7,600 nt of DNA from a virus (IMGVR_UViG_2529293138_000010:1-7600), one strand, 5' to 3'; shown: positions 1-5,999, counted from the stretch's first letter. The notes: generated by a model from the sequence alone, not told the origin. A program made the numbers and translations.

Positions 1-1242
1 ATGGCGAGAAAAACACCCCCATTAACCACGGTGCAGATCAAAGCAGCCAGACCAGCGGAAAAGGAATACACCCTACAGGACGGCGGAGGGCTTTTTCTCC
101 TGGTCAAGCCGTCTGGATCCAAACTCTGGCGATTTTCCTACTACCGACCATCGGACAAAAAAAGAATATTGCTGAGTTTTGGATCGCTTGATGATGTTTC
201 CCTGGCTGATGCCAGAAAACGCCGTAGCGAGTACAGAGCGTTAATCAGTGCCGGAAGTGACCCGCAGGGCCATGAGAAGAAAAAACGAGAGGCAGAGGCC
301 CGAAGACAAAGGAACACGTTCGAAAATGTGGCGGCGGCATGGTACCAGGTGAAAATCAGCCAGAATCTGGCCCCCAACACTATTAAAGACATCTGGCGAT
401 CGCTGGATAAATATGTATTCCCGTTCATCGGAAACACGCCAGTAGACACCCTCACCGCCCGAAGATTCGTTGAGGTGATGACCCCCATCAAGGAGCGCGG
501 CAACCTGGAAACACTCAAGCGGGTTTTACAGCGCGTTAATGAGGTAATGGATTACGCCGCCAACAGTGGGCTGATTGATACCAATCCGGCTATGAATGTG
601 CGTAAGGCGTTCCCCTCCCCTGTAAAAAAACATATGCCAACAATCCGCCCCGAACAGCTGCCGGAGCTTATGCAGGCTTTATCAGTATCGGCAACAGAAC
701 GGCAGACCAGACTACTTATTGAGTGGCAGCTACTGACCGTAACCCGTCCCGTTGAAGCATCGTCGGCACGCTGGGAAGAAATCGACATAGAGGCGCAACG
801 CTGGACCATACCAGCCGGACGCATGAAGATGCGCCGCGACCACGTTATCCCGCTTTGTGACCAGGCTATGGCAGTGCTGGAGGCTATGAAACCAATCAGC
901 CACCACCGCGATTACGTTTTCCCGAGCCTGAAAGACCCACGGCAGCCGATGAACAGCCAGACCGCTAACGCAGCATTACGGCGCATGGGATTCGCTGGCG
1001 TGCTGGTGTCTCATGGATTACGCGCCATATTCAGCACAGCAGCGAACGAGGAAGGATTCGAGCCGGACGTAATAGAGGCGGCACTTGCCCACGTCGACAC
1101 CAACGAAGTGAGACGGGCATACAACAGGAGCAACTACATAGAAAAACGCGTGGTGCTTATGCGCTGGTGGGGCGAATTTGTCGAGGCTGCGGCGACGGGC
1201 GTAACCCTCGCCAGTGGTAAAAGGGGTATCCGAGCCGTGTAG
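1..1242 (+). CDS. int: Tyrosine-type site-specific integrase (P4/CP4-57-like prophage integrase family)
   Basis: 413-aa ORF from ATG at position 1. C-terminal catalytic signatures HGLRAIFST (box II H-x-x-R) and LAHVDTNEVRRAYNRSNY (His/Tyr nucleophile region) are typical of phage integrases; N-terminus resembles P4-type integrases. Confidence 0.9.
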   Translation: MARKTPPLTTVQIKAARPAEKEYTLQDGGGLFLLVKPSGSKLWRFSYYRPSDKKRILLSFGSLDDVSLADARKRRSEYRALISAGSDPQGHEKKKREAEARRQRNTFENVAAAWYQVKISQNLAPNTIKDIWRSLDKYVFPFIGNTPVDTLTARRFVEVMTPIKERGNLETLKRVLQRVNEVMDYAANSGLIDTNPAMNVRKAFPSPVKKHMPTIRPEQLPELMQALSVSATERQTRLLIEWQLLTVTRPVEASSARWEEIDIEAQRWTIPAGRMKMRRDHVIPLCDQAMAVLEAMKPISHHRDYVFPSLKDPRQPMNSQTANAALRRMGFAGVLVSHGLRAIFSTAANEEGFEPDVIEAALAHVDTNEVRRAYNRSNYIEKRVVLMRWWGEFVEAAATGVTLASGKRGIRAV

Positions 1243-1729: not shown

Positions 1730-1936
1730 ATGGAAGCAATCAAAAAAGTCATCTTTCGCCAGGAAGTAAAAAAACTTATCCACATCAAGGCAAACAGCAC
1801 GCTTCAAAGCATGATCAACGCCGGAGAATTTCCGCAGGGTTTTCGCGTTGGTTTACGCCGTCGCGGATGGTATGAGGAAGACGTAATCGCATGGATGAAA
1901 GAACGTGAGCAGGAAGCACGCGAAACGGCTGCGTAA
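1730..1936 (+). CDS. alpA: AlpA-family phage transcriptional regulator / excisionase-like HTH protein
   Basis: 68-aa ORF with GAGG (1717-1720) 9 nt upstream of ATG. Sequence LIHIKANSTLQSMINAGEFPQGFRVGLRRRGWYEEDVIAWM matches the AlpA/Vis HTH pattern (…FP…G…GW.E.E…W). Confidence 0.85.
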   Translation: MEAIKKVIFRQEVKKLIHIKANSTLQSMINAGEFPQGFRVGLRRRGWYEEDVIAWMKEREQEARETAA

Positions 1937-1966
1937 TGGTGTGAGGCATAACACGATGAACATAAC

Positions 1967-1991
1967 AAAAAGCGCCCCGTTACCGGAGCGC
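1967..1991 (-). terminator. Candidate intrinsic terminator for leftward transcription (convergent with alpA)
   Basis: On the minus strand: GCGCTCC / GGTAAC loop / GGGGCGC (7-bp stem with one G-U pair) followed by TTTTT (plus-strand A-run 1967-1971). Confidence 0.4.
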
Positions 1992-2081
1992 CCTTGCGAA
2001 CAATTAACCTGCTGCGAAAAAATTGGATCAGTGCAGGGGAATTATATCAACTGTGTGAAGAAGCGCCACAATTGCCGGATA

Positions 2082-2115
2082 ACAGGCAAAACAAAGGCCA
2101 CCTGCTACGGTGGCC
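2082..2115 (-). terminator. Candidate intrinsic terminator of the leftward small-gene operon
   Basis: Perfect 7-bp stem GGCCACC (2096-2102) / GGTGGCC (2109-2115) with 6-nt loop; on the minus strand it is followed by TTTGTTTTG (2095-2087). Confidence 0.5.
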
Positions 2116-2218
2116 ATTCGACACAAGCTACACGTTATCCCCAACGCATGAGCATAACCAACAATGCCACATTTGCGGCTGGTGGGCAAAGCGTAACCGG
2201 AAAAAAATTCCGGTGGGG

Positions 2219-2344
2219 CTATTCCTGTTCTTTGTCCTTGCGTCGCTGGCGACGTTTGATCTCATGCAGAATTTTTTCAGGTAAGAATCCTGCTGATTTA
2301 TTTTCTGGTAGCAATGGTTTGTTATCCGTCTGCTTCCTGGTCAT
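2219..2344 (-). CDS. Hypothetical 41-aa peptide (MTRKQTDNKPLLPENKSAGFLPEKILHEIKRRQRRKDKEQE), basic C-terminus
   Basis: Not in the ORF track (below its length cut-off); found by manual reverse-complement translation. ATG at 2344 lies 3 nt after the stop of the upstream 60-aa ORF (TGAtgtATG), with an AAAGG SD-like motif 7 nt upstream; same frame as the two upstream minus ORFs. A CCGGAA/TTCCGG hairpin follows the stop. Confidence 0.3.
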   Translation of the reverse strand: MTRKQTDNKPLLPENKSAGFLPEKILHEIKRRQRRKDKEQE

Positions 2345-2347
2345 ACA

Positions 2348-2530
2348 TCAACCTTTTGGTTCGTTACGTTTCCATACCTGCAATGGGCGCGTTTTCCTGT
2401 ACTCTTTTAGGAATATCTCAAGAGCAAACGCACACGGTGCGAATCTTTCTGATTCATGCTCGAGCGCCATATTTTCGTGCTCTCTTTTCGTTTTTTGCGA
2501 TGGTGTATTGGTTGATTCTTTGTTGGTCAT
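2348..2530 (-). CDS. Hypothetical 60-aa protein
   Basis: Minus-strand ORF starting 58 nt downstream of the RHH-like gene, with AGGAA 7 nt upstream of ATG. No family recognised. Confidence 0.35.
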   Translation of the reverse strand: MTNKESTNTPSQKTKREHENMALEHESERFAPCAFALEIFLKEYRKTRPLQVWKRNEPKG

Positions 2531-2587
2531 TGTGTGTTCCTGTAAAGCAATGCGCCGGAGTTCCTCACACCACGGCGCTGATAGTGA

Positions 2588-2893
2588 TTATTCTGATTCT
2601 TTGGCCTTGCGGCGCTGGAGTTCTTCACGCGCGACGGTGACGAGTTGCCCGATCTCCTCGGCTGCTTTGACACCGATTTTTTCCACCTGCGCCAGTGCAT
2701 CGAGCGAAGAAACCAGGGGATTTTCTCCGCTTCCTTCTGCCTGGCGGCGGGCGATTTCACCGCGAACGGCTGTAATCACGAAAGCGGCTATTGTTTCCCC
2801 TTCCGTTTTCGAATTTTCCATTTCCTCGATTACATCATGGGGGAAGCGGATATTTTTCATTTGCGATCTGCTGTTGATGTTTCCTGTTGCCAT
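2588..2893 (-). CDS. Putative ribbon-helix-helix (Arc/MetJ/CopG-like) DNA-binding regulator; candidate island repressor
   Basis: 101-aa ORF diverging from the palindrome-rich intergenic region. N-terminal KNIRFPHDVIEEMENSKTEGETIAAFVITAV fits a beta-strand/helix/helix RHH pattern; acidic/basic helical C-terminus. True start may be the internal MKNIRF. Confidence 0.55.
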   Translation of the reverse strand: MATGNINSRSQMKNIRFPHDVIEEMENSKTEGETIAAFVITAVRGEIARRQAEGSGENPLVSSLDALAQVEKIGVKAAEEIGQLVTVAREELQRRKAKESE

Positions 2894-2910
2894 CAGAATG
2901 TCCGGTTATT

Positions 2911-3018
2911 TTGAGGTGTGTACACATTACACCAAAAGGTGTGTTGATAAAACACTTGACACTGTAGCACACTTAAATCTAATCTGTATATACACCAATT
3001 ATTGTAGTGTATATACAG
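2911..3018. promoter_or_regulatory. Divergent control region with multiple operators
   Basis: Palindrome TGTGTACACA (2917-2926); inverted repeat ACACC-AAAA-GGTGT (2929-2942); repeated ACAC/GTGT motifs; perfect 12-bp inverted repeat CTGTATATACAC (2984-2995) / GTGTATATACAG (3007-3018) separated by 11 bp. Confidence 0.55.
2956..2985 (+). promoter_or_regulatory. Predicted sigma70 promoter for the rightward (replication) operon
   Basis: Consensus -35 TTGACA (2956-2961), 18-bp spacer, -10 TAATCT (2980-2985). The 12-bp inverted repeat begins at the 3' edge of the -10 and would cover the start site. Confidence 0.45.
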
Positions 3019-3252
3019 CAACGCCCCGCAGTGGTGGTACACATGCAGGGCGTCTAACCACCAACGATAACGAGAGTATCGAGGTAGCTATGAGAAATCA
3101 TACCACACACCCGCAAGGGCGGGACTCGCACAACCTGAATAAAGCGGGTATGAAAAACCTGTTGATCGCCACTGCCAGCCAGGGCTATGATTCATGTGCA
3201 CCTCATAAAACGGGTGCCGGGATTACCACCCCGCTGATGTCCAGGGCGATAC

Positions 3253-3275
3253 AGACGCCGCACGCGTCTTTTTTT
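3253..3275 (+). terminator. Intrinsic terminator / attenuator inside the rightward leader
   Basis: Stem AGACGC (3253-3258), loop CGCAC, GCGTCT (3264-3269), followed by a T7 run (3269-3275); about 280 nt downstream of the predicted promoter and 165 nt upstream of the first strong RBS. Confidence 0.55.
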
Positions 3276-3440
3276 GTATCGGCGCACACGCACACCTTAA
3301 CAATGGTGGGCTGTACGGGGCCGACTTCGGTCTGGCTGGTCACCTTGGACGCCAGTTGTGGTAACCCTGTACAGTCCACCGCCAGCGAGATTACCACCTC
3401 CGGCGGTGGGGATATCCCAACGTCTAAGGAGGCTGCCAAC

Positions 3441-3632
3441 ATGGCTACTACCCCTACCCTTATACATTCTCAAACTGCCTTTATCTGGCGCTTTATTGCC
3501 TTTGGCGCGTCAGAATCCCAAATCATCAACGTAACCGCCTGGACAGAACGCGAAGCGCGTAACCATTGCCCGTCAGGTTGTGTCGCTGTATTTGCCGCCC
3601 GTATTCGTCAGGGGAAAACCTATGCACAATAA
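3441..3632 (+). CDS. Small protein (63 aa), possibly Icd-like (tentative, from memory of similar islands)
   Basis: Strong SD AAGGAGG (3426-3432) 8 nt upstream of ATG 3441. Sequence MATTPTLIHSQTAFIWRFIAFG…TAWTEREARNHCPSGCVAVFAARI. The frame is open upstream to 3090, so a longer form cannot be excluded. Confidence 0.5.
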   Translation: MATTPTLIHSQTAFIWRFIAFGASESQIINVTAWTEREARNHCPSGCVAVFAARIRQGKTYAQ

Positions 3633-4086
3633 AACCACACCGGACGCAGCAGCTGCCGAGCTCACTACGCTGATGCACGCGCTGATTGATATTTCTGTTA
3701 TTGCTGACAGGGCGCATAAGCACGCCACCAGTGAAACAGAATATGCATGGGCTTTCGTTCCTCATTCGCTGGCGGTTATGCAACTTAGTGCGGATATGGC
3801 GCTGAATGAGGCCAAAGCCATCCTGATTGCTGATTGTGAAAATGGGGGGGTTATGCGTGATGATCGTTTTAATTCCCTGAAACAGGAATTTTCCGGCGTA
3901 TCTGATGATGCGGCTGATGCGCTTTCGTCAATGCCAGAACTTATTAGAGCGGCTTTTTTCTTACTTTCCACGAAAGAATATAAATCAACGGGACTTGATG
4001 TACTGAATATCGCCGCCGATTATGCGGAATATGTGGCAGAGGCGCGTTACAGAAGAAAATTTCCTGAGGATGTAAGCCATGCGTGA
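3622..4086 (+). CDS. Hypothetical protein (154 aa)
   Basis: ATG 3622 with GGGGA 6 nt upstream, overlapping the previous stop by 11 nt; the ORF-track frame opens at 3580. No family recognised. Confidence 0.55.
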   Translation: MHNKTTPDAAAAELTTLMHALIDISVIADRAHKHATSETEYAWAFVPHSLAVMQLSADMALNEAKAILIADCENGGVMRDDRFNSLKQEFSGVSDDAADALSSMPELIRAAFFLLSTKEYKSTGLDVLNIAADYAEYVAEARYRRKFPEDVSHA

Positions 4087-4317: not shown

Positions 4318-4605
4318 ATGAAACTTAAATATTCTGGCTTAACTGCCAGCGGCACCGCTCGGCCTGAAATCCGTAACGGCGATATTTACCGCGATAAATA
4401 TGGCGGCATGGTAACGATTAAAGGCGTGGCAGAACGGCGCATCACCTACCGCCGTGAAGGTTACGAATATGATTGCGTGATGCCTGTTTATCAATTCCGG
4501 CGTGATTTCACGCTGGTAGGCCAGCGTAAAGCCGTTAATCAGAAACGTGCAACAGGTTATATCCGCAAAATCCGTGAAATGCTGGTCGCAGGGGGTAAGA
4601 AATGA
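4318..4605 (+). CDS. Hypothetical small basic protein (95 aa), possibly DUF4222-like
   Basis: GGAG (4304-4307) upstream of ATG 4318; its stop overlaps the next start (ATGA at 4602-4605). Motifs YRDKYGGMVTIKGV…ITYRREGYEYDCVMP. Family assignment is from memory only. Confidence 0.55.
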   Translation: MKLKYSGLTASGTARPEIRNGDIYRDKYGGMVTIKGVAERRITYRREGYEYDCVMPVYQFRRDFTLVGQRKAVNQKRATGYIRKIREMLVAGGKK

Positions 4606-5999
4606 AACTGGCACCGAACGTAAAACGATTACCGAAAGATAAATACACCGATGCGATTATTTTTGCGGGTATTGATGCTCACTCATTCGCAGAGCATTAC
4701 ATCATTGCACAGGCCAAAAAAGCAGGCGATCCAGTCCCTCCCGTTTATCTGGGGCGTTATCAGTTAAGCGAACTGGATAACCTCCAGATTGTTGATGATG
4801 GGCGATACAGGGCGACGGTGATACGCGCCGGAAATATTGAAGAGCCGCAGCTGTTAACCATCGCCACGAAACTGGCGATCGCCGGAGTCCAGGAGGCGCG
4901 GCTACTTTCTGAAAATTTCGAATTGCTGGAGGAATGGAGCGACCAGCTTCCACGGCTTAGGGAGACATGGGAACGCGGGGAAAGCCTGAGCAACCAGCGA
5001 AAAACCACGCTACCAATGAGCGTGGGATCTGCCGGATACGACACACAACTTGATTACGTGGTTAAGGGAATTATTCCGGCTGTATCGCTTTGCAGCATAT
5101 ACGGGGCGAGCGGTTCCTATAAATCATTCCTTGCCGGATCGTGGGCGTGTCACGTTTCCACTGGCCGCCAGTGGGGATGCCGCAGGGTGGCGCATGGCGC
5201 TGTTCTCTATGTGGTTGGTGAAGGCGGTATCGGCGTTCCTCGTCGTGTAAAAGCCTGGGAGGTTGTGCACGGTGAGCAGGTGAAAAATCTGTATCTGGTA
5301 AACCGTCCCATCTTTCCGGCTGCCCCGCTTGATGTTGATGAAATGGTTATCGCTGCCCGTCAGGTGGAACGGGAAACGGGTAAACCTGTACGCATGATTA
5401 TTCTGGATACGCTGGCGCGGTGCTTTGGTGGCAATGATGAAAATGATTCCCGTGATATGGGGGCGTTTATCCGTGGGTGTGACGAACTGAAACGACGCAC
5501 AGGGGCCACGGTGCTGGTGGTTCACCATTCCGGCAAGGATGAAACAAAGGGAGCGCGTGGTTCCAGTGCATTTCGTGCTTCGCTGGATGCTGAATACCGG
5601 ATACGCAGGGAGGACGCAGGAAGCGAAGCCCTGGTTATCTCATGCACCAAAATGAAGGATGCGGAGGAACTCAAAGAAGCCGCATATGACTTACGCGTGG
5701 TGGAGCTTTTTACCGACGCTGACGGGGAGTTAATCACGTCGCTGGTGGTGGTGGATAAGCCGCGCCCTCCCGTTGAACTGGAGCGCATCGAGGAGGCTGG
5801 CAACAAGACGGAAAACCATACCGCGCTATGGGGATGCATACGTTCACGCACACAGAACGGAGACAAGTGCACGATCCCGCTGTTACGTGATGACATGAAA
5901 AAACTGGGGTACGAAATGAAAAACTTCCGGCGCTGGCTGTACAAGCTGGAAAAAGACAGGGTTATTCGTATCGATGGGGATGATGTAGCGCCGCTATAA
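4602..5999 (+). CDS. Replication-associated P-loop ATPase (RecA-fold, RepA/DnaB-like AAA_25-type helicase)
   Basis: 465-aa ORF with Walker A-like YGASGSYKSF, Walker B-like VRMIILDTLAR and downstream VLVVHHSGKD, typical of RecA-fold replicative helicases; iteron-like repeats lie immediately 3'. Confidence 0.8.
   Translation: MKLAPNVKRLPKDKYTDAIIFAGIDAHSFAEHYIIAQAKKAGDPVPPVYLGRYQLSELDNLQIVDDGRYRATVIRAGNIEEPQLLTIATKLAIAGVQEARLLSENFELLEEWSDQLPRLRETWERGESLSNQRKTTLPMSVGSAGYDTQLDYVVKGIIPAVSLCSIYGASGSYKSFLAGSWACHVSTGRQWGCRRVAHGAVLYVVGEGGIGVPRRVKAWEVVHGEQVKNLYLVNRPIFPAAPLDVDEMVIAARQVERETGKPVRMIILDTLARCFGGNDENDSRDMGAFIRGCDELKRRTGATVLVVHHSGKDETKGARGSSAFRASLDAEYRIRREDAGSEALVISCTKMKDAEELKEAAYDLRVVELFTDADGELITSLVVVDKPRPPVELERIEEAGNKTENHTALWGCIRSRTQNGDKCTIPLLRDDMKKLGYEMKNFRRWLYKLEKDRVIRIDGDDVAPL

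Follow-up and report, generated by a model that had tools for sequence, protein, structure and literature searches.

Positions 2911-3018 of a Gram-negative phage-inducible chromosomal island as a probable YlcI-operated promoter/operator core

The stretch of viral DNA analysed here (IMGVR_UViG_2529293138_000010:1-7600, 7,600 nucleotides; the window) is a Gram-negative phage-inducible chromosomal island (PICI). It is small, has no complete phage gene set, and carries int, alpA and a replication module in the gene order of such islands. Positions 2911-3018 are its back-to-back promoter region, and comparison with related loci suggests that they are probably the bidirectional promoter/operator core of an immunity-type switch operated by YlcI, the product of the adjacent leftward gene. 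An earlier reading of the window made without database searches (the sequence-only reading) had placed a dense operator and promoter region here, between divergent transcription units, and that description was borne out. The coordinates of all features are collected in Table 1.

Every repeat that had been claimed for this region is present, and the repeats exceed chance expectation. A perfect inverted repeat of at least 12 bp arose in 3 of 2000 dinucleotide shuffles of 2894-3020. Each arm of the 12-bp inverted repeat contains the 10-bp palindrome TGTATATACA, whose two copies (at 2985 and 3008, 23 bp apart) are the only ones in the 7.6-kb window (0.16 expected). The same 23-bp spacing separates the two copies of a direct repeat, AGGTGTGT, at 2914 and 2937. 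RGTGT/ACACY pentamers are denser in these 108 bp than anywhere else in the window (8 of 30, with 0.43 expected). The repeats can be described as five GGTGT-type sites, S1 to S5, spaced at approximately 23 bp and bracketing both −10 boxes, each of which has one spacer site and one start-site copy. S1 and S2 form a 23-bp pair at the leftward promoter (P_L), S3 and S4 form another at the rightward promoter (P_R), and S5 lies 23 bp past S4. Some details of the sequence-only reading needed correction. The 12-bp inverted repeat does not abut the −35 hexamer, since it starts 22 nt past TTGACA and takes in the final two bases of the −10 hexamer as well as the predicted start (~2992). Likewise, the divergent genes, said to be about 110 bp apart, have start codons separated by 196 bp (ylcI ATG at 2893, Ash-like ATG at 3090).

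The comparison of operators among related islands that had been proposed was carried out on 40 related loci (given L numbers), the prototype island EcCICFT073 (L042) and Pmp7 of Pasteurella (L043). A GTDB scan with a YlcI alignment provided 9 loci, and diversity was added by exact-protein look-ups. We anchored 21 representative loci from Escherichia, Enterobacter, Xenorhabdus, Photorhabdus, Pantoea, Lelliottia, Yersinia, Erwinia, Serratia and Cronobacter on the −35 hexamer, which gave a gapless alignment from the ylcI start to the site past the −10 hexamer. The promoter scan had not listed the P_R −10 hexamer because only 4 of 6 positions matched its second-hexamer rule; its T1, A2 and T6 are kept in 21 of 21 anchored loci, with variable middle positions. 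At the position of the P_L −10 hexamer, nearly all 21 loci have a TAnnnT hexamer on the bottom strand, which is TATAAT in L003 (Xenorhabdus).

The layout of the sites is kept without gaps in about 20 lineages, which range from Escherichia to Pasteurella, and the sequence of the repeat is lineage-specific. Four repeat positions are conserved, at approximately +22, +46, +70 and +93 from the ylcI ATG; S1 occupies the fixed +22 position in every lineage, each with its own motif, and other lineages likewise place their own motif at the position of S3. Loci with operators of the window type share an invariant S3, an invariant GGTGTGT core of S2, GGTGTG cores generally, the −35 hexamer and the TA...T of the −10 hexamer, and only these loci conserve the possible extra ACACC site. 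The core ACACC of S4 is conserved, and its distal part differs only by transitions among loci that encode an identical protein. In the LTTVRV group, named here for the predicted beta-strand of its YlcI and found in E. coli and Xenorhabdus/Photorhabdus, the motif is shared and the sites are nearly invariant while the spacer from S3 to the −10 hexamer is saturated with changes. EcCICFT073 has two copies of GTGGGCCACACC, 23 bp apart, around its −10 hexamer. Motifs of at least 8 nt have all of their exact copies inside the 150-nt operator region of their own 4-19 kb locus. By motif localisation, no consistent second operator cluster was found near alpA or int. We did observe GGTGTGAGGCATAACAC at 1938-1954 (+), between the alpA stop and an ATG at 1956; it resembles S2 (GGTGTGTTGATAAAACAC), and an equivalent was not found consistently in other lineages.

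The motif of each lineage can be listed beside the beta-strand of its YlcI. The window itself pairs MKNIRF with GGTGT(G/A)Y. SLTARI goes with GTGTAAGAC, LTTVRV with GTGTGTTTC, IKNVRV with GTGTGCAT, IKNVRI and LKNIRI with GTGTGTATT, MTTIRV with GTGAGGTAC and QISIRI with GTGTGATTC. QLNARF and QINARF are paired with GTGAAT(A/C)CC and QIGARF with GTGAAC. ALAARV is found with two motifs, GTGTGCAAC and GTGAAAAC, and ALKARV, the strand of EcCICFT073, with GTGGGCCAC. The lineage-specific motifs of the anchored loci also include GTGAATACC.

Variation in YlcI is concentrated in the first ~45 residues, the remainder being conserved. Distances between operator 6-mers correlated with distances between YlcI beta-strands (Mantel r=0.68, p=2e-4) and were not correlated with distances between YlcI C termini (r=0.10, p=0.22); the partial correlation of the operators with the C terminus given the N terminus was −0.13. 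In the loci with window-type operators, residues 1-45 of YlcI are 100% identical. The converse is seen in L014, in which the C terminus is 96% and AlpA 66% identical, with an N terminus of 51% identity and a different motif. This co-variation of the repeats with the N-terminal domain of YlcI across about 20 lineages supports the suggestion that the adjacent ribbon-helix-helix (RHH)-like protein may control the region. Within the overall interpretation offered by the sequence-only reading, this element fared well, the proposed role of LexA did not, and the "master switch" appears to be just one of several layers (see below).

The N-terminal domain of YlcI is likely an RHH domain. The strand, helix, helix succession of this fold, over ~45 residues, was found in the YlcI N terminus: the AlphaFold2 model has a coil at 12-18, helices at 19-28 and 35-54, and a long helix at 59-100, so that an RHH-like domain (~9-53) is followed by a long C-terminal helix. 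Alignment with hhalign placed KNIRFPHDV of YlcI in register with FNFRMPMEV of Mnt and FNLRWPREV of Arc at non-significant probabilities (1.6% for Mnt, 22% for Arc). In Pfam, 11 of 16 family members matched PSK_trans_fac (PF07704, Rv0623-like) below threshold (best E 0.0024), and the short form from Pmp7 had a weak match to the RHH part of HicB-like proteins. A PDB sequence search with the family profile found no RHH protein, and a Foldseek search of PDB with the full-length model returned nothing at E≤0.001; PHROGs labels the family as of unknown function. Arc reads operator bases through Gln9, Asn11 and Arg13, as seen in the Arc-operator structure. The aligned positions of YlcI are 12, 14 and 16. 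Positions 12 and 14 vary along with the motif, and Arg16 is invariant, matching a GTG core that the motifs share.

Might the repeats be bound by something other than YlcI, or by nothing at all? AlpA, the Icd/Ash product or a helper-phage protein could recognise them while the RHH-like protein targets something else, and the island must encode its helper specificity somewhere; AlpA is a demonstrated activator of Gram-negative PICIs whose binding sites are not known (PMC6092414). Against such a factor, the operators and the YlcI N terminus are identical in loci whose AlpA proteins share only 21-66% and whose first rightward open reading frames (ORFs) share only 13-73% identity. In addition, the motifs are lineage-specific and confined to the operator region, and the N terminus of YlcI is the only variable DNA-binding-like domain that tracks them. 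We regard a different binder as improbable. Still less credit can be given to the view that no dedicated protein binds the repeats, which would be by-products of a low-complexity tract of alternating purines and pyrimidines or of sequence intrinsic to the promoters. S1, S4 and S5 are indeed alternating purine-pyrimidine runs that change among relatives only by transitions, and CACACC comes after both −10 hexamers and could thus be initial transcribed sequence. Yet in other lineages the motifs at the corresponding positions do not alternate (GTGAATACC, GTGTAAGAC, GTGGGCCAC), copies of the repeat also lie within the promoter spacers and not at +1 alone, and the motifs co-vary with YlcI, which makes this view very hard to sustain.

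The 12-bp inverted repeat itself allows two other readings. As a nucleic-acid hairpin, it would act as an RNA stem-loop, either 5' or internal in the rightward or the read-through transcript (in stability, processing or pausing), or as a weak leftward terminator. The full hairpin folds at −13.4 kcal/mol (z = −4.3), the scan tool flagged the repeat as a terminator-like element of the minus strand, a short inverted repeat of variable sequence sits directly past S4 in most other lineages (e.g. CCTTGAG..CTCAAGG), and a single compensatory change (2991 T>C with 3011 A>G) is found in L028, L030 and L031. On the other side, transcription from the predicted P_R start would include only 4 bp of the stem, and the fold of 2992-3060 leaves the stem unused. 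The stem has only 4 G-C pairs, and its minus-strand tail is T-poor. In relatives, the substitutions mostly lack a compensating partner (2987, 2989 and 2990/2991 in L018, L022 and L027). The perfect 12/12 match is peculiar to the window: loci encoding an identical protein have 10/12 (L018), 11/12 (L022 and L027), 12/13 (L030) and 13/13 (L021) complementary positions. Finally, the fifth element of L011, GAAATACAAA, is identical to the S2 of that locus and in direct rather than inverted orientation; L014 and L010 have an inverted copy of S4. Because the arms are imperfect and mostly uncompensated among relatives, only 4 bp would be transcribed and the L011 copy is direct, two copies of an operator, S4 and S5, are favoured over a hairpin, which we consider unlikely. 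The second reading is that LexA binds the CTGTATAT half-sites and places P_R under SOS control. The outer 8 bases of the arms (CTGTATAT and ATATACAG) do resemble a LexA half-site, and PICI mobilisation follows mitomycin C treatment of lysogens. The arms are CTGT-N4-ACAC, though, and no CTGT-N8-ACAG with two or fewer mismatches occurs within 2911-3018. The CTGT ends are not conserved (CTGC in L028-L031, ATGT in L025, unrelated motifs in other lineages), and induction of alpA depends on helper phage and does not proceed via SOS itself (PMC6092414, PMC11773190). The SOS mimicry envisaged by the sequence-only reading thus has next to no probability, and LexA control was rejected when the search for the SOS-box pattern in 2911-3018 came back empty. 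The only exact LexA-box-like pattern of the window, a perfect CTGT-N8-ACAG (CTGTTATTGCTGACAG), lies at 3695-3710 (+) inside the ORF at 3580-4086 and may be due to chance.

Several observations weigh against operation of the region by YlcI. Because the operators adjoin the 5' end of ylcI, linkage contributes to the co-variation of operators and N terminus; the operators are physically adjacent to the N-terminal coding part, and linkage alone would yield some co-variation. Beyond GGTGT(G/A), the window-type motif is loosely defined, and the distal S4 drifts despite an identical protein. Counts of exact 7-mer repeats, a crude measure for degenerate sites, were not significant in several single loci; these per-locus counts were replaced by the anchored alignment, motif localisation and the Mantel test. 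No −35 hexamer is recognisable for P_L, and both start sites are placed by consensus alone. The YlcI forms of EcCICFT073 (L042 10474-10653 = NC_004431.1 1380473-1380652) and Pmp7 (L043 4853-5032) have just 59 residues: they retain the RHH-like domain and a basic tail and are without the C-terminal helix, so that oligomerisation via that helix cannot be universal.

A second feature of the region is a frame of 578 codons without a stop. Opening at the end of alpA, it passes through a 60-aa ORF and ylcI in antisense orientation, continues over the promoters, operators and a leader hairpin, and enters the Ash/Icd ORF. Over the ylcI antisense and the intergenic part this frame is open in 29 of 31 unique loci. 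Over ~650 nt it has zero stops in 25 of the 31, against a mean of 12.5 stops (minimum 6) in the other two frames. The third codon positions of ylcI and of the read-through frame coincide. A Tyr codon that follows a codon ending in T or C creates an antisense stop, and tyrosine is absent from all 15 lineage-representative YlcI proteins. Identity was slightly higher in the sense frame (103 of 105 pairs), but alignment on the sense protein biases this comparison toward sense. The frame was called in L040 as the gene of a Bro-N protein of 495 aa that overlaps ylcI. In Pmp7 (OR544138.1), a 224-aa coding sequence annotated "transcriptional repressor" (L043 4435-5109, minus strand) is the read-through frame ending in the Icd-like domain, and the YlcI-like ORF lies unannotated on the opposite strand. 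PHROGs gives the label "transcriptional repressor" to Icd-like families (phrog_1743, 6196, 6928).

Phage P4 couples its long eta ORF to the alpA homologue, and translation of eta prevents termination in the immunity region (PMC10111431). The conserved frame from alpA matches this logic, which suggests that AlpA-dependent transcripts are read and translated across the switch. Such read-through would be expected to bypass the repressed promoter and to oppose expression of the repressor. AlpA has been shown experimentally to be the helper-induced activator of Gram-negative PICIs, in a study that left the question of a repressor open (PMC6092414). Given this activation and the frame that crosses the region, "master switch of the island" was an overstatement; the switch would be one of at least three layers, namely a protein repressor, read-through from alpA, and C4/isrK RNA immunity.

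To its right, P_R would drive a leader of the P1 immI or P4 type, which contains isrK- and C4-type RNAs together with an Icd-like gene; the replication genes come next. Within this leader lies a hairpin (−19.5 kcal/mol, z = −3.7) that occurs from Escherichia to Pasteurella (Pmp7), with double compensatory changes at 5 of 9 pairs among 13 lineages; it matched no Rfam family. The loop of the hairpin, GGUGGUA, is similar to the single-stranded portion of the C4 RNA and might base-pair with the UACCACC sequences that C4 targets. The first cistron has a conserved ribosome-binding site, GAGGTAGCTATG, and its Icd-like domain corresponds to residues 131-174 of the 180-aa Phage_ASH ORF. The sequence GATTACCACC occurs twice, at 3220-3229 within the isrK-type RNA and at 3388-3397, 5' of the icd ribosome-binding site, and both copies are complementary to C4 3358-3367, with predicted pairing. 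These leader RNAs and repeats are the arrangement of the P1 immI and P4 immunity regions, which puts P_R upstream of an RNA-controlled leader and replication module. The C4 and isrK models also match Gram-negative PICIs (Tommasini et al., PMC10111431). Many relatives that have the same repressor and operators, L022 and L027 among them, lack the cassette of ~400 bp containing isrK and C4. In L001, the frame bearing the RNAs is annotated by PGAP as an "ash family" pseudogene.

We infer binding, repression, start sites and the oligomeric state of the YlcI switch, and the mechanism that we propose is conditional on them. The YlcI/YnfO protein, with its Arc/Mnt-like RHH N terminus and putatively oligomerising C-terminal helix, would bind the sites co-operatively. 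Binding would occlude P_R, shutting off the Ash/Icd leader, its isrK and C4 RNAs and, beyond these, the replication genes, and P_L would come under autoregulation. Residues 12 and 14 of the beta-strand would set the specificity, and the invariant Arg16 would read the shared GTG core. A more general proposal is put forward only tentatively: the YlcI/YnfO RHH protein may be the missing master repressor of Gram-negative PICIs, with at least 10 interchangeable specificities (each an N-terminal domain with its operator set), induced by P4-eta-like read-through. In this proposal, AlpA-driven transcripts would be translated along the stop-free frame, antisense through the repressor gene and over the operators. 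Such translation would silence repressor synthesis and would let RNA polymerase travel beyond the repressed promoter and the terminator of the RNA immunity layer to reach the replication genes.

Mnt/P_ant of phage P22 is the nearest architectural analogue of the switch. Mnt consists of an N-terminal RHH domain and then a C-terminal oligomerising helix, and YlcI shares with Arc and Mnt the beta-strand motif N-x-R-x-P-x-(E/D)-V, in register. The P22 immI region also resembles the window in that the gene of a small repressor (RHH in P22, likely RHH here) diverges from the operon under its control, and operators (O_mnt and O_arc in P22) lie over back-to-back promoters (P_mnt and P_ant in P22). In both, the repressor gene has a small ORF behind it (orf59a in the case of mnt; NC_002371) and an antisense RNA adds another layer of control. 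The similarity is confined to architecture, with no detectable homology between Mnt and YlcI (hhalign 1.6% over 13 columns). The window has five sites over ~100 bp with 23-bp spacing, whereas P22 has one operator of ~21 bp per protein; the RNA layer of the window is C4/isrK rather than sar, its operon contains an icd-like gene and replication genes rather than ant, and its repressor gene is antisense within a long open frame. In immI of P1 and P7, as in the window, a repressor-controlled promoter (P51, with C1 acting at Op51) drives a leader with a C4 RNA, target repeats and icd, and a tblastn search with the Ash/Icd ORF matched the Icd coding sequence of the 95-kb Escherichia phage vB_EcoM-673R5. 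The window has no ant gene after this leader and has replication genes in its place. C1 of P1 binds asymmetric 17-bp operators, in contrast to the lineage-specific symmetric sites of the putative RHH protein.

The immunity region of P4, located 3' of vis, comprises the promoters PLL and PLE, seqA, the CI RNA, seqC, and the nested eta and kil genes. The window shares with it relatives of seqA and CI detected by the isrK and C4 Rfam models (PMC10111431), an internal promoter-like site just 5' of the isrK-like RNA (cf. PLE), ORFs nested in the same frame (eta/kil in P4; the read-through frame, Ash and Icd here), and a long frame that opens at the end of an alpA homologue (vis in P4). P4 immunity is described as operating by RNA only (PMC10111431), unlike the window, which has a candidate protein repressor gene and operators embedded antisense in the long frame. 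In the phage collection (which was not checked for P4 itself), YlcI had no match other than that in Pmp7. The islands controlled by Stl or Rpr (the Staphylococcus aureus pathogenicity islands and Gram-positive PICIs) likewise have a repressor gene divergent from the excision/replication operon with a bidirectional promoter between them (PMC6092414). The window differs from these in that int and alpA are upstream of the repressor gene, on the opposite strand, and Gram-negative PICIs differ in that their induction needs AlpA (PMC6092414).

The C4/isrK layer (PMC10111431) and activation by AlpA (PMC6092414) are already known. A literature search found no paper on the function of YlcI/YnfO, on its operators or on an RHH repressor in Gram-negative PICIs, and no description of the switch module in EcCICFT073 was found in the searchable literature. 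Gram-negative PICIs, including the capsid-forming type, are widespread. The present analysis supplies a candidate repressor, an operator map, a table of beta-strands and motifs, and the module in the prototype EcCICFT073, so that the open question of repression in these islands becomes directly testable. The conserved antisense read-through frame ties the requirement for AlpA to the switch and provides a testable model of helper-phage induction.

Table 1. Features of the 7,600-nucleotide window, in order of position.
Feature	Position	Strand	Basis or remark
int	1-1242		ORF list and domain search
alpA-like gene, 68 aa	1730..1936	+	Pfam Phage_AlpA match weak, under the curated cut-off
Stop-free (read-through) frame, 578 codons from 1899	1905..3632	+	candidate starts GTG 1905, ATG 1956
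60-aa ORF	2348..2530	-	3' of ylcI, leftward unit
ylcI-like gene, 101 aa, YlcI/YnfO family	2588..2893	-	candidate operator-binding repressor
Site S1 GGTGTGTAC	2915..2923	+	inside TGTGTACACA; covers predicted leftward start (~2917)
10-bp palindrome TGTGTACACA	2917-2926		direct reading
P_L −10 TAATGT	2929-2924	- (bottom strand)	predicted from consensus
ACACC/GGTGT inverted repeat	2929-2933 / 2938-2942		direct reading
Possible extra site ACACC (bottom GGTGT)	2929..2933	-	overlaps P_L −10; inverted repeat with S2
Site S2 GGTGTGTTG	2938..2946	+	23 bp from S1, in P_L spacer
P_R −35 TTGACA	2956-2961	+	TTGACN or near variant in 21 loci; alignment anchor
Site S3 GTAGCACAC (bottom GTGTGCTAC)	2964..2972	-	in 18-nt P_R spacer
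P_R −10 TAATCT	2980-2985	+	18-nt spacer; start predicted at ~2992 from consensus
12-bp inverted repeat CTGTATATACAC / GTGTATATACAG	2984-2995 / 3007-3018		12/12 complementary, 11-nt gap
Site S4 CTGTATATACACC	2984..2996	-	left inverted-repeat arm; covers −2 to +5 of P_R
Site S5 AGTGTATATACAG	3006..3018	+	right inverted-repeat arm; ~+15 to +27 of rightward transcript
Leader hairpin	3021..3053	+	followed by UCUAACCA (3053-3060)
Ash/Eta-like ORF, 180 aa	3090..3632	+	first P_R cistron; Pfam Phage_ASH E 9e-11
Internal promoter-like site (TTGATC, 18 nt, TATGAT)	3162..3191	+	predicted; 7 nt 5' of isrK-like RNA; P4 PLE analogue
isrK-type RNA (relative of P4 seqA)	3198..3274	+	Rfam RF01394, 65 bits (gathering 50)
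Intrinsic terminator of isrK-type RNA	3253-3269 and T run		terminator scan
C4-type antisense RNA (relative of P1 c4, P4 CI)	3299..3386	+	Rfam RF01695, 69.6 bits (gathering 45)
Icd-like ORF, nested in-frame in Ash ORF	ATG 3441	+	NCBIfam Icd-like E 1e-15, above threshold
AAA_25 RepA-type helicase	4602-5999		domain search
DUF4222 and SSB genes			domain search

The alpA homologues of the related loci have a precomputed PF05930 match. For the 60-aa ORF no family match was found; a homologue with the HESERFAPCAFALE motif occupies the equivalent position in EcCICFT073, and a comparable small ORF was called in L012, L015, L016, L018, L019, L021 and L026-L031 and not in others. Located 3' of this ORF, at 2090-2132 (-), is a G+C-rich hairpin with a T tail and a weak isrD-like Rfam match (E 0.59), which could plausibly terminate the leftward ylcI unit. 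The module of the window recurs in EcCICFT073, and sequence similar to window 2500-3700 occurs in 1896 of 5426 complete E. coli genomes. The E. coli relative L001 continues into capsid and head-decoration genes. In L027 (GCA_018683775.1, contig JAGEXT010000014.1), which has an identical YlcI and operator set, the island integrase gene adjoins TerL and Terminase_4 terminase genes, an adjacency that matches the helper-embedded PICI configuration described previously (PMC10111431).

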